This document shows, one piece after another, positions 9,367-12,583 of a stretch of DNA of 64,000 nucleotides. A model generated the notes under the pieces. The model was not told where the DNA came from and did no database searches. It saw only the letters and a program-made list of their open reading frames with translations. Numbering within the stretch: the first letter of the stretch is position 1; every line of letters starts with the position of its first letter. The translations under genes were made by a program, and so were the position numbers. Source of the stretch: Microthyrium microscopicum (lineage: Eukaryota); contig MU004243.1 in NCBI GenBank assembly GCA_010405405.1, positions 429,340 through 493,339 on the forward strand, read 5' to 3'.

Positions 9367-10578
9367 TCACGAGGAGGGTAAAGGTCTACGAGTAGGCACT
9401 CGGAGAATTCCTTCAAGCTCTTCAACACGCTTGGCAGCTTTATCAAGTGATTCCTGCAATCTTGCGGTACTCTTCGCAGACTCTCTAAGCTTCGCGTCCT
9501 TCTCATCTAGTTCCCGGCGAAGCGTATCTTTGGACTGAAGAGTTTTTGCATTCAGTTGTCGGAGCTCGTTGTCTTTCTCTACGAGCGCTTGCTGCAGCTT
9601 TTGGTCCTTCTCTTCAAGCACCTGCTGCAGCTCTTTAGCTTTATCTTCTAGCGCTTTCTGCAGATCCGCGCAAACCCGTCCAGATTGCAGCAGTTCTCGG
9701 TCCTTACATTCAAGCTCATGTTGATGCGCCGATACCATTTCAGCAAGTTGGCGTTTTAGATCGTTGGTCTCCTCCTGGTGGTTCTGCTTTTGTTGGTCGA
9801 GTTGCTCGTGTCGTAACAGACTACTTCGCCGTTCTGGATACGATGGTGGATACGATGGTGGTGGAGTTGGTGTAGAATATTGCGGTGGTTTTGATGTCGG
9901 AAACTCTACCATTGACCTAGGCGCATTGAACCCCGCTTGCGGCTGGCCATTTCTTTCAAATGTGCCTGGGTGCCTCGGACCTTGTGATGTAGTAACGCTT
10001 GTCCTTGAAGGAAGTGCCATAGAGTGAGGTCTTTGCCCTGGTCTCCTTACAGGTAGAGGCACGACGGCCCCGTTCTCGGACATCACGGATGCTCTGACAC
10101 TTGAGGTAGTGGAATTGGTGACTGAGAAGCCATTCGACTGAACTGGACTCCACTGGCTGCCAACAGCGCTGCGAGTAGTAGTAGGCTGATAAGGTGGGAA
10201 TCCGGGTATTAACGAGGATGGGATTGGTTCTTCACGCATTTCATTGATCTGGGGTAACTTGGGTTGACGATGTGAAGGAGATCCATACATGGACATCCGT
10301 GAAGATTCATAGGCGATATCTGGCGGCGCGCTGACTCTGTTGATTTTGAAGCTCGTGTCTGCATGGCTAGATTCCTGGACTGGCGAGACAGGCGCATTTC
10401 CGTAAAAGCGTGTTTCCCGTGGCTCTGTCTCAGAGGATTGCCTCCTCAAGTCGACGCTTGGTGTAGGAATGGTAGAAGTATCAACTTGAGTACTGTTGAG
10501 TTTGATTGGAGGCTGAGTAGCGCCGGACCGGCCCTTTTGGCTCTTTTGGCTCTTTTGGCTCTTCTGAAGCTTAGGCAT
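9367..10578 (-). CDS. Hypothetical protein: disordered S/P-rich N-terminus with C-terminal coiled coil
   Basis: 403-aa ORF. C-terminal heptad/EKD repeats (LEDKAKELQQVLEEKDQKLQQALVEKDNEL). No recognisable domain; ends uncertain. Confidence 0.6.
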   Translation of the reverse strand: MPKLQKSQKSQKSQKGRSGATQPPIKLNSTQVDTSTIPTPSVDLRRQSSETEPRETRFYGNAPVSPVQESSHADTSFKINRVSAPPDIAYESSRMSMYGSPSHRQPKLPQINEMREEPIPSSLIPGFPPYQPTTTRSAVGSQWSPVQSNGFSVTNSTTSSVRASVMSENGAVVPLPVRRPGQRPHSMALPSRTSVTTSQGPRHPGTFERNGQPQAGFNAPRSMVEFPTSKPPQYSTPTPPPSYPPSYPERRSSLLRHEQLDQQKQNHQEETNDLKRQLAEMVSAHQHELECKDRELLQSGRVCADLQKALEDKAKELQQVLEEKDQKLQQALVEKDNELRQLNAKTLQSKDTLRRELDEKDAKLRESAKSTARLQESLDKAAKRVEELEGILRVPTRRPLPSS

Positions 10579-10954
10579 GGCGGGATGTCGTTGATGTCAG
10601 CGGTAACCAGGCAAGAGATAGAGATCATCAACAAGATAGAGGGAGCGAATGACGAGTAGATTAGTATGTCTTGTCGTAGGAAGCGCGGTTGAGGATAGAT
10701 AAAGCTGTGAAGTCAACATATCCACCCTACCCAAGCGGAATCATAGGAATACTTTCACAGCCCATGACAAGCAGCTCTGCGGTCATTTCCCAGAAAATTA
10801 AGAGGGAAGTAATACCAGAAACTGGGCACAAAAGTTAACAGCAGGATCCTGGATTACAATCATGCAGGGTGACTGCCCCAAGGTAGTTGTTTGAAGAGCA
10901 TATGAGAGCCCATGTGTGATTGGCTACCGTAGCCTCTCCCATCAATGATAGCGT

Positions 10955-10966
10955 TATCACGTGATA
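10955..10966. promoter_or_regulatory. Perfect 12-bp palindrome TATCACGTGATA containing a CACGTG E-box, about 60 nt upstream of the RNase P RNA
   Basis: Seen directly. Followed by a TTTAAA element and a CT-rich tract. Function is inferred only. Confidence 0.35.
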
Positions 10967-11027
10967 TCGAAATCTCCCACTACCTTTAAAGATTCTTTTG
11001 ACTCAACCATCTTCTCTTTCTCCTCCC

Positions 11028-11460
11028 AAGCACCGTCCTCACCATCGCTGCGTTTCTTTGCTTCCAAACAGACAACCTGACTTCGGTCAAGTCAGTCCTA
11101 TACATCGCAAATGAGTAAATTCGGAGAAATCTTCAAAACACCGCTATACTCCGACCCATCTTTTTAGGACGTGAGCTCTGGCAACTGCCCGCGAGGGTCT
11201 GGCGCGAGAGCGTCTGCATGCGGCATCAGAAAACTCGGGGCAATACGTTTCATACAATACCAACGCCTTCATTTTTATGTTGGTGGAGAGTTGAGTTCTT
11301 GGCGTGTTTTTTGCAACCATGGAAGCTGCTGCGAAGATTGTATGTGCTACGGCATAAATACTTGAGTGCAATACGCAGCATGTTGGATATTTCTTGCTCA
11401 CTTGTGGGCGAGGATTGATGGCATAATTCGATTCCGATTATACTGGCGAGGACGGTGCTT
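11028..11460 (+). ncRNA. RPR1: Nuclear RNase P RNA
   Basis: P1 helix 11028-11044/11444-11460 (16 of 17 bp). P2 GCTGCGT 11047-11053/ACGCAGC 11373-11379. CR-I GAGTAAATTCGGAGAA 11113-11128; CR-II AGAAA 11228-11232; CR-III ATGGAA 11319-11324; CR-IV TTGAGTGCAAT 11362-11372; CR-V AATTCGATTCCGATTATAC, which pairs with CR-I (P4). UUCG/UACG-capped hairpins. Order and spacing match yeast RPR1. Confidence 0.93.
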
Positions 11461-11741
11461 CAATTTTTTTCATTCTCAGGTATGTGCTATCTACTGCTTT
11501 GCATCATTCAGTTTAGGATACTACTAATTTTCTTGTGTATATACAATGTTGCGATTTCTTGGTTGCGTGGTTAGAAGAACTTTGGTGGAATCCAGTAGGC
11601 CAGCCACAAATGCATCTTTAGTGTCGACAAGACCTCAGACTCAATTCCTATCATTCTCGTATTTACCATCCATTACGTGCCTCCCATCAAATACGATGAC
11701 TATCGTGTGATGCGCCATTTATCGAGTGCAACGGGAGTCGT

Positions 11742-12583
11742 CTACTTTTTCTCGAGCGGCTCTATGGCGAACAGCAAATCGCTTCGCATCGTGTACTTGA
11801 TGCCCGAAAGCACTGGCTCACCACTATGGTAGAGCTCTGCATGTTGGAAGAAGAGTACGGAGCCAATTTTGGGATCATAGTCAAGTCTGTTCTTTTCCAT
11901 GTGGTCCATGAAAGTAGTCGCACCACCAAGAAGCTTGTCGCCCTTTGCCTGGTGCTCGGCATCATTGAGATAGAGATGCAATGTAAACCAGGTTCGTTCT
12001 TTAGTCTTTGGATCGGTATAAGAACCATCGTAATGCGCTATACACCAAAACAGTTAGCAACAGATTCACGTTACATCAATCATATTCTCAAACACTTACG
12101 TCTAAAGTATTCTGCGCCCGCCGTACCACCAACATATTTGAGAAATCGCATACGTGGATTCACCCGAGTCGCTTTCCACGATCTTTTGCCCACCAACAGC
12201 GGCCACGACTTCTGACTCAGCTCTTGGACTTCGGGAACCAATGGAGCGCATCGAGCCCAGAGCTTGTCCATGAGAGTCTGGTCGTCCCAGATGATGCGAC
12301 CGCATCGGCGAACATCTTCCATAAGTTTTTGCGTGCCGCCGCCAGTATTGATCAATGCTCGATCCCATGTACCTTCATTGTGCGATTCGGCGGCCATGAG
12401 TAGCTGGTTGCACTCTTCGACAGTAAGAATACCATCGAGGCTTACGGCGTAGCAGTTGGCATATTGTGGGAGGCCGCCTTTTTTGAAGTCGATTGGAGTA
12501 GCTGTGGGATTTGGAGCTGGGCCGGAGAGATAGTCGTCTGGTAAGGTGTAGCCTGTTTTACTTGAAGCTTTAGTAAATGGCAT
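11742..12583 (-). CDS. 2-oxoglutarate/Fe(II) dioxygenase (prolyl 4-hydroxylase-like), 2 exons
   Basis: RVNPRMRFLKY..YFR/PHYDG (HxD across intron 12099-12038), TLHLYLND..GGATTF, YHSGEPV..KYTMRSDL (distal His and 2OG-binding RxD). Confidence 0.88.

Follow-up and report, generated by a model that had tools for sequence, protein, structure and literature searches.

A splice-signal module conserved downstream of a fungal nuclear RNase P RNA gene, and its probable part in forming the RNA 3' end

The gene for nuclear RNase P RNA of the fungus Microthyrium microscopicum lies in a stretch of 64,000 nucleotides (nt) of contig MU004243.1 (assembly GCA_010405405.1, positions 429,340 to 493,339 of the forward strand), here called the window, in which all coordinates are counted. 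Shortly beyond the 3' end of the RNA there is a module consisting of a 5' splice site (donor) and an extended branch-site box. The module exists, its position is tied to the 3' end of the RNA, it is deeply conserved among relatives, and nothing is conserved downstream of its box. The explanation considered the most likely, and held to be somewhat more than an even proposition, is that in this fungus and in a deep clade of its relatives the RNA is a transcript of RNA polymerase II (Pol II) whose 3' end is made by the spliceosome. From the observations we infer Pol II transcription, a splicing reaction that goes through its first step only, and trimming of the tail that this step would leave.

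Results

The RNase P RNA gene and its downstream module

Positions 11029-11460 encode the nuclear RNase P RNA of an ascomycete fungus. In an E-value scan the Rfam family RF00009 (RNaseP_nuc) matches 11035-11453 on the plus strand over the full model (1-301) with an E-value of 7.7e-6 and 27.3 bits, the cut-off being 28, while the scan at gathering thresholds gave no match in the 64-kb window. The identity put forward in a preliminary description of this DNA is therefore upheld by the first scan and was missed by the second. The score of the window RNA is 0.7 bits under the gathering score, and several relatives score 22-27 bits, so that in part of the clade the gene would be missed by standard annotation. 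All of the CR-I, CR-II/III-like, CR-V and CR-IV blocks of the window RNA align with RF00009, and so do the P4 strands (TCGGAG and TTCCGA) and the GAAA and TGGAA blocks. The RNA is closed by a perfect P1 helix of 13 base pairs (bp), formed by 11029-11041 with 11448-11460.

The stretch AATTTTTTT (11462-11470), which includes a run of seven T (T7, 11464-11470), follows closely upon P1. It is part of a U/C-rich tail that leads into the donor context CAG/GTATGT (11477-11479 and 11480-11485). The branch motif TACTAAT occupies 11522-11528, with the branch A at 11527, and forms the end of a longer box. The first AG after the branch, at 11573-11574, belongs to the first YAG (Y, pyrimidine). These readings of the sequence agree with the preliminary description in every coordinate that it had given for P1, the T runs, the donor, the branch site and the first AG.

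In the window GTATGT occurs 26 times on the plus strand and 12 times on the minus strand, and TACTAAT five and three times, respectively; the 13-nt box, with one mismatch allowed, had at least one match in 13 of 100 shuffles. The motifs are thus unremarkable in the window alone, and their significance comes from the presence of the same module at the same place in relatives.

Conservation of the module among relatives

Relatives were taken to be public metagenome contigs that match a two-block pattern, made up of a CR-V-like 8-mer and a CR-IV/P4 14-mer taken from the window RNA. The pattern reaches only those RNase P RNAs that share both exact blocks, and all counts of relatives given here are among the matches listed. 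At least 116 loci matched, 80 of them with flanks of 800 nt and 36 with flanks of 300 nt or less. The 116 loci fall into 67 k-mer clusters and, together with the window, yield 68 representatives; the clusters are not phylogenetically independent, and the sequence flanking the conserved motifs is unalignable between most of them. Sixty of the 67 representatives were scanned with Rfam (L043, L085, L087, L089, L091, L093 and L105 were left out). RF00009 was found at E ≤ 0.01 in 45 of the 60, and 39 of the 60 reach the curated score, with 28.7-63.6 bits.

The module is present in 54 of the 68 representatives, the window counted. The conservation of donor and box downstream of the gene, on which the preliminary description had staked its proposal beforehand, was therefore found. 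The RNA bodies themselves are far apart: among 37 full-length module-bearing RNAs the median identity is 51% and the minimum 40%, and the nearest relative of the window among the matches listed is 59% identical. The conservation of the module is deep and is not a matter of recent common descent.

The remaining 14 representatives comprise five chance matches to the pattern, the single clusters L026, L001 and L111, a variant clade of three and a module-free clade of three. The chance matches (L045/L101, L048, L065, L084 and L109), which show neither an RF00009 match nor a P1-like tail, were dropped, and so were L026, its contig being cut 17 nt past the CR-IV block, and L001/L063, which run on into unrelated sequence. 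In the variant clade (L006, L016 and L029) the donor is GTTGGC or GTTAGC at the same offset, followed about 38 nt on by GGTGCTGAC.

The RNase P-like clusters without the module are L111 and the clade of L035, L096 and L115. The three members of this clade share another conserved element, GCAGGGTAAC, about 30-60 nt past the CR-IV block; it is followed by a short complementary stretch, so that a hairpin is possible, and in L035 and L115 it comes after a long T run. The element may mark a different 3' end, perhaps of the RNA polymerase III (Pol III) type, in another group of fungi. Further downstream, CCGGGTAACC occurs in L111 and L115. In the short contigs L001 and L063 an RNase P RNA is represented by its 3' two-thirds (RF00009, 24.6 bits, 5'-truncated) and passes, directly after P1, into unrelated sequence that ends in a match to transfer-messenger RNA (RF00023, 26.3 bits, under the cut-off). 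Both contigs have the look of chimeras assembled from abundant RNAs, in which case the join might mark a mature 3' end.

Geometry of the module and pairing of the box with U2

The order of elements downstream of the 3' strand of P1 is the same in nearly every locus: a U/C-rich stretch, the sequence (C)AG/GTNNGN and, tens of bases on, the box GGATACTRCTAAY. The donor lies 33-44 nt (median 39) past the CR-IV block in all 54 module-bearing representatives, and 17-21 nt beyond P1 where P1 is well defined. From the donor to the branch A there are 35-91 nt in 51 of the 54 and 235-260 nt in three; the latter (L002, L040 and L095) represent a long-intron version of the module, with the box 235-260 nt past weak donors (GTACGA, GTATGG). 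The putative exon ends in CAG in 30, in TAG in eight and in AAG in seven of the 54. The stretch from -18 to -4 before the donor is 86% pyrimidine over the 54 relatives. An Sm/Lsm-type site, which the preliminary description mentions for the telomerase RNA of fission yeast, did not emerge as a general feature: the tail is simply U/C-rich, and an A-U(n)-G form was seen by eye in a few loci (e.g. L104).

The box is nearly invariant. Over the 54 sequences its columns read G49, G50, A45, T49, A48, C50, T53, R (A20/G34), C54, T54, A52, A54 and Y (T38/C16), where the search expression partly constrained the last nine positions and left the two leading G free. A search of all representatives on both strands, over 183,058 bases, gave 39 copies of the strict 13-mer. 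Every one of them lies on the strand of an RNase P RNA and no more than 420 nt downstream of it, and none is found elsewhere.

The pairing of the box was considered with nt 31-46 of yeast U2, whose sequence was taken from PMC4712673. Box positions 1-9 (GGAUACURC) are complementary to U2 nt 34-42 over an unbroken run of nine pairs, which includes one or two G-U pairs and leaves no A bulged, while positions 7-13 (URCUAAY) suit the canonical register with the bulged A. Taken together, the two overlapping registers explain why all 13 positions are conserved. With U2, RNAduplex gives -12.0 kcal/mol for the box, as compared with -3.2 for the canonical 7-mer and -3.5 for the branch region of the neighbouring gene. 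By analogy with the telomerase RNA TER1 (see below), the extra pairing may slow the transition to the second splicing step. Within the body of the window RNA no partner of GGATAC was found by eye, a systematic test not having been made.

Signatures bearing on the second splicing step

Identity by segment was calculated for 24 selected pairs of moderately diverged loci, not for all pairs. Its mean is 0.86 in the last 120 nt of the RNA, 0.79 in the tail, 0.67 in the interior of the intron between donor and box, and 0.94 in the box; it is 0.61 over the 40 nt after the box and 0.55 further beyond, which is the background for such alignments. No conserved acceptor, second exon or downstream RNA is found beyond the box in these 24 pairs. 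The functional unit ends at the branch box.

For the position of the possible acceptor we took the first YAG that is 6 nt or more past the branch A, and 313 offsets further downstream in the same loci served as control. This YAG is 20 nt or less from the branch in three of 53 loci, as against 26% at the control offsets (binomial P 1.5e-4), which amounts to a depletion, and 17 of the 53 have no YAG within 45 nt. The distant AG of the preliminary description is, accordingly, not conserved as such; what is seen is an avoidance of YAG within 20 nt and a cluster at 21-30 nt. A usable acceptor, placed far off on purpose, may persist in some lineages. Past the box, pyrimidines make up 51% of the next 30 nt, without enrichment, and several of these stretches are G-rich. 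For coding introns of the window a distance of about 8-20 nt from branch to AG had been described as typical, and the one intron verified by RNA, that of the neighbouring gene, fits this with 16 nt.

Among the 54 donors the hexamers GTGAGT (11), GTCAGT (10), GTAAGA (8), GTATGT (4) and GTAAGT (1) were counted. As a set these donors are unusual; GTAAGT is the optimal form and the commonest donor in fungi. A donor with C at position +3 (GTCAGT, GTCAGC or GTCTGT) is found in 12 of the 54, ten of them GTCAGT. By eye, acceptor distances did not separate cleanly by whether or not the donor has C+3. Features that would impede the second step are present as sequence signatures, namely the depletion of YAG, the 9-bp pairing with U2 and the C+3 donors.

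Promoter and T runs

Transcription of the gene by Pol II is regarded as highly probable. The 5' end, C/AAGC, is conserved among relatives, and in 35 relatives the pyrimidine fraction is 0.86 from -30 to -1 and about 0.5 further upstream. Within 150 nt upstream, TGACTC or GAGTCA is found in 16 of 35 relatives (shuffle mean 2.2, maximum 9; controls 1 of 32), and CACGTG in 8 of 35 (shuffle mean 1.0, maximum 5; controls 0 of 32). No enrichment upstream was seen for TATAWA (4 of 35, shuffle mean 2.2) or for CCAAT/ATTGG (11 of 35, shuffle mean 8.5). We take TGACTC and CACGTG to be sites of the Gcn4/CpcA type and of the basic helix-loop-helix type, respectively. CT-rich tracts at start sites, together with such factor sites, are typical of Pol II promoters in filamentous fungi. 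If these factor sites act, synthesis of RNase P RNA would be tied to amino-acid or phosphate control. No leader that might hold A and B boxes was seen, the RNA contig beginning at the 5' strand of P1 and no formal scan for such boxes having been made. The CR-IV/P4 block TTCGATTCC is found at 11428-11436 in the window and in all loci. It resembles the B-box core of tRNA genes (TTCGAnnCC), and could be either the vestige of a Pol III promoter inside the gene or a mere coincidence with the conserved core of the ribozyme.

The longest T run in the tail is T3 in nine, T4 in six and T5 or more in 39 of the 54 module-bearing representatives. Inside the RNA, runs of T5 or more are found in 9 of 43 loci (shuffle mean 11.6 ± 2.8) and runs of T6 or more in 3 of 43 (shuffle mean 3.5); since they occur at the shuffle rate, internal T runs are not selected against. 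The window RNA has internal T runs at 11161-11165 (T5), 11272-11276 (T5) and 11307-11312 (T6). The T run past P1 looks ancestral, because L035 and L115, which lack the module, carry long T runs at P1.

RNA contigs, neighbouring genes and feature coordinates

Assembled contigs from two sequencing runs were available, one of the same organism (X1) and one of a soil metatranscriptome (X2). An X1 contig covers 11036-11956, beginning seven bases inside P1 and passing through the T7 run, the donor and the box without a joint over 11480-11574; no spliced contig that joins 11479 to 11575 is present in X1. The intergenic stretch 10834-11035 is left uncovered by X1, and the start of the contig at 11036 suggests that the 5' end of the RNA coincides with the start of the transcript. 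The X2 share is small (0.09) and consists of contigs of the RNase P RNAs of two relatives, one over 11042-11303 and one over 11184-11232 and 11425-11445, with nothing downstream of P1. The RNase P RNAs of relatives are abundant in soil RNA. Expression as a stable RNA is indicated by contigs, that is, by the X1 start at 11036 and by the RNAs of relatives in X2.

The next gene downstream is convergent, and its product has a weak match to 2-oxoglutarate-Fe(II) oxygenases, with the nearest protein clusters from Ascomycota. Its intron verified by RNA, 12038-12099 on the minus strand, is 62 nt long, has the form GTAAGT...TGCTAAC and ends in a TAG; loose ends of X1 contigs at 12037 and 12100 correspond to its exon junction. 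Several short X1 contigs with one to four differences over 11927-12029 suggest allelic or paralogous variants of an exon of this gene. Upstream, the flanking open reading frame (ORF) 9367-10578 on the minus strand has no Pfam match. The features are collected in Table 1.

Table 1. Coordinates of the RNase P RNA gene, its putative control and processing signals, and the adjacent gene in the window
Feature	Position	Strand	Basis or remark
GATTGG (complement of a CCAAT box)	10918-10923	+	similar sites in some relatives; weak evidence
CACGTG E-box, about -70 from the RNA 5' end	10958-10963	+	sequence reading
TGACTCA site, about -30	10999-11005	+	sequence reading
CT-rich tract directly before the RNA 5' end, a putative core promoter for Pol II with initiator context (C/AAGC)	11006-11028	+	pyrimidine fraction
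Nuclear RNase P RNA	11029-11460	+	432 nt including the full P1; RF00009, P1, contigs from two runs
U/C-rich tail, 19 nt, ending in CAG	11461-11479	+	putative 3' extension left by spliceosomal cleavage
5' splice site GTATGT	11480-11485	+	direct sequence reading
Extended 13-nt branch box GGATACTACTAAT	11516-11528	+	sole match in the window
First YAG (TAG) after the branch; possible acceptor, unconserved	11572-11574	+	about 46-47 nt from the branch A
Convergent protein-coding gene, its 3' untranslated region (UTR) facing the module	11742-12583	-	ORFs; Pfam PF13640, E 1.6e-4, under the cut-off

Discussion

A proposed course of 3'-end formation

Under the spliceosomal explanation, Pol II would use a CT-rich promoter that has no TATA element and would begin transcription at the first base of P1. 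The nascent RNA would fold, U1 would recognise the donor 17-21 nt beyond P1 (at 11480 in the window), and U2 would bind the unusually extended branch box. The first transesterification would then free the RNase P RNA as the 5' exon, bearing a U/C-rich tail of 17-21 nt with a CAG-OH end. Ligation of exons would be disfavoured by the lack of an acceptor within 20 nt, by the very stable pairing with U2 and, in some lineages, by the C+3 donor, and the lariat intermediate would be discarded. The tail would be trimmed in the 3'-5' direction towards the U run or P1; if trimming stopped at the U run, the RNA would again have the oligo-U end that the ancestral Pol III transcript had.

A wider proposition is offered tentatively, with more doubt than belief: that in a large ascomycete clade Pol II has replaced Pol III in transcribing the RNase P RNA, whose 3' end comes from a dedicated cleave-only intron. 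The 13-nt GGAUACURCUAAY would in that case be a purpose-built branch site, at which U2 is held so firmly that the first step happens and its products are discarded. Were this true, the box would be a portable signature for finding further RNAs cleaved by the spliceosome, with RNase MRP RNA and other former Pol III RNAs as candidates. A second, unrelated RNA, essential and abundant, would make a general pathway of RNA maturation out of what has been a curiosity of telomerase. Such a change of polymerase for RNase P RNA in fungi, with Pol II in the place of Pol III, would also parallel that of insects and crustaceans, by a different mechanism. The 54 variants of the module, which differ in donor type, acceptor distance and loss of the T run, would constitute a natural experiment on how the spliceosome stops after the first step, and annotators and Rfam-based pipelines would miss such genes or place their ends wrongly.

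Weighing of the alternatives

Several points weigh against the spliceosomal explanation. The arguments from the promoter are indirect and lean on general knowledge of fungal Pol II promoters. Tails with T5 or more, the T7 of the window included, make Pol III termination possible in the 39 species concerned. The strongest pairing with U2, that of 9 bp, is in the shifted register and has no bulged adenosine. The first YAG lies at 21-30 nt from the branch in 20 of 53 loci, where about 10 would be expected if none lay within 20 nt (an expectation derived from the null fractions of the YAG test); this excess suggests that complete splicing may occur in part of the clade. As to the RNA, contigs tell neither the strand nor the 3' ends and do not reveal lariats or spliced forms that are rare, and the part of the X1 contig beyond P1 may stem from the 3' UTR of the convergent gene and not from a precursor of RNase P RNA. 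The labelling of X1 as RNA is itself a guess, backed by the uncovered intergenic gap and the spliced intron of the neighbour.

If the signals were those of an ordinary, complete intron (11480-11574), the RNase P RNA would be exon 1 of a Pol II transcript, from which the mature RNA is released by other nucleases, or the intron would merely boost expression. Donor and branch are canonical in kind, and the excess of YAG at 21-30 nt is inside the usable range of 15-30 nt given for yeasts in bioRxiv 10.1101/224170, where some spliced by-product is recorded for the TER1 RNA of Schizosaccharomyces pombe as well. This possibility, which the preliminary description had kept beside its own, is nevertheless weakened and now appears unlikely: there is no conserved acceptor or second exon, identity being 0.55 beyond the box; YAG is scarce within the 20 nt in which the normal intron of the neighbour has its acceptor, and 17 loci lack one even within 45 nt; and X1 has no junction contig, though the junction of the neighbour is seen. 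Ligation would, moreover, give a long 3' extension with no defined end, and would leave the extended box and the C+3 donors unexplained. A Pol III gene with a fail-safe is held to be improbable to the same degree. Here transcription would stop in the T run, and the splice signals would deal only with transcripts that read through, or with stray ones made by Pol II, through spliceosome-mediated decay or termination, shielding the downstream gene. The T runs of five or more directly past P1, the long T runs at P1 of the outgroup-like L035 and L115, and the existence of spliceosome-mediated decay, described for BDF2 in bioRxiv 10.1101/224170, all favour it. Against this, 15 of the 54 lineages keep the module with T3 or T4 only, there is no avoidance of internal T5 and T6 runs, and the upstream region shows a CT-rich tract with TGACTC and CACGTG in place of a TATA or leader-type signal; the distance of 17-21 nt from P1 to the donor, fixed over some 50% divergence, suits the definition of a 3' end better. 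The T7 run as the sole maker of the 3' end, another alternative of the preliminary description, has lost ground on account of the 15 tails with T4 or less and the chance rate of internal T5 runs.

It is very improbable that the signals belong to what lies downstream, either as the first intron of a neighbouring gene or as the intron before a second non-coding RNA. A few close pairs of loci are similar over the first 40 nt past the box (e.g. L005/L021 at 0.90); over the 24 pairs, however, downstream identity is at background, the next gene in the window is convergent on the minus strand, and the position of the module tracks the 3' end of the RNase P RNA and no downstream feature. Coincidence, by which chance splice-like motifs would have come to stand past a Pol III terminator, had also been allowed for in the preliminary description. 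The motifs do occur at about chance frequency in the window alone. This alternative can nonetheless be practically dismissed, and is excluded by the presence of the module in 54 of 68 representatives whose RNA bodies have a median identity of 51%, the strict box being found solely at this place in 183 kb.

Comparison with known systems

In the literature searched, which left most subscription journals and supplements outside, no published account was found of splice signals that follow RNase P RNA genes, or of a processing of these RNAs by the spliceosome. As a maker of 3' ends, spliceosomal cleavage is described in that literature for telomerase RNAs alone, the papers from 2015 on that name it dealing with telomerase or with splicing in general, and the box sequence is in no relevant paper found there. 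The spliceosome as a maker of 3' ends is thus known; RNase P RNA would be a new substrate, with a distinct branch element and an implied switch of polymerase.

The closest counterpart is the telomerase RNA TER1 of S. pombe, which has a GUAUGU donor and in which the second step is blocked by a branch site perfectly complementary to U2 and a long distance from branch to acceptor (PMC4299874). Its 5' exon is trimmed until Lsm2-8 binds (PMC4299874). Shared with it are the donor shortly beyond the mature RNA and after a U-rich stretch, with GUAUGU as in the window; a branch site strongly complementary to U2; a long distance from branch to acceptor (47 nt in the window); and a released 5' exon that is the functional RNA, as is proposed for RNase P RNA. 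By its GTATGT, its strong box and its 47 nt to the first YAG, the window module belongs to the S. pombe TER1 type. It is unlike S. pombe TER1 in having RNase P RNA as its substrate, a nearly invariant 13-nt box whose extra complementarity to U2 is shifted by 3 nt, no general Sm-type site and far deeper conservation among species, and in that the module is known here from sequence alone.

In S. cryophilus and in S. octosporus, two other fission yeasts, the GUCAGU donor of TER1 blocks the second step by hyperstabilising the pairing with U6, and is otherwise rare, with 3 of 5,702 and 1 of 5,350 introns (PMC4299874). Ten of the 54 RNase P modules likewise have GTCAGT, and two more have C+3; the window, with GTATGT, does not follow this type. 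The telomerase RNA of Aspergillus and other filamentous fungi uses an AUAAGU donor (PMC4299874). Aspergillus is probably of the same broad fungal group, and the idea of a spliceosomal 3' end is the same, but since all 54 RNase P modules start with GT and not with AT, a different way of stalling the second step is needed. A computational search for other RNAs cleaved by the spliceosome had been hampered, according to Kannan et al. (PMC4299874).

A spliceosome-profiling study lists BDF2, TER1 and SPBC530.07c as the only cases of interrupted splicing (bioRxiv 10.1101/224170). In BDF2 and SPBC530.07c the first step takes place without the second for want of a usable acceptor (bioRxiv 10.1101/224170), as is proposed here. 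Those events destroy or regulate an mRNA, whereas the 5' exon released here would be a stable, essential ribozyme.

A gene for RNase P RNA of the Pol III type has the same RNA family in common with that of the window, as well as a T run directly past P1. It differs from the genes described here, in which the T run is lost in 15 of 54, internal T runs are tolerated, the upstream region is CT-rich and TATA-less, and splice signals are conserved. In insects and crustaceans the RNase P RNA resides within an intron of a host gene that Pol II transcribes (PMC4287351, PMC6797745). An arrangement of this kind was not found in the window, where the RNA is upstream of the donor, no upstream exon or joint is seen, and the X1 contig starts without a loose end. 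The arthropod RNA and, as proposed, the fungal one are alike in having left Pol III and in depending on Pol II and the splicing apparatus. In arthropods, however, the RNA is intronic and both of its ends are trimmed, whereas in these fungi it would be the 5' exon at the start of the transcript, and only its 3' end would be of spliceosomal origin.

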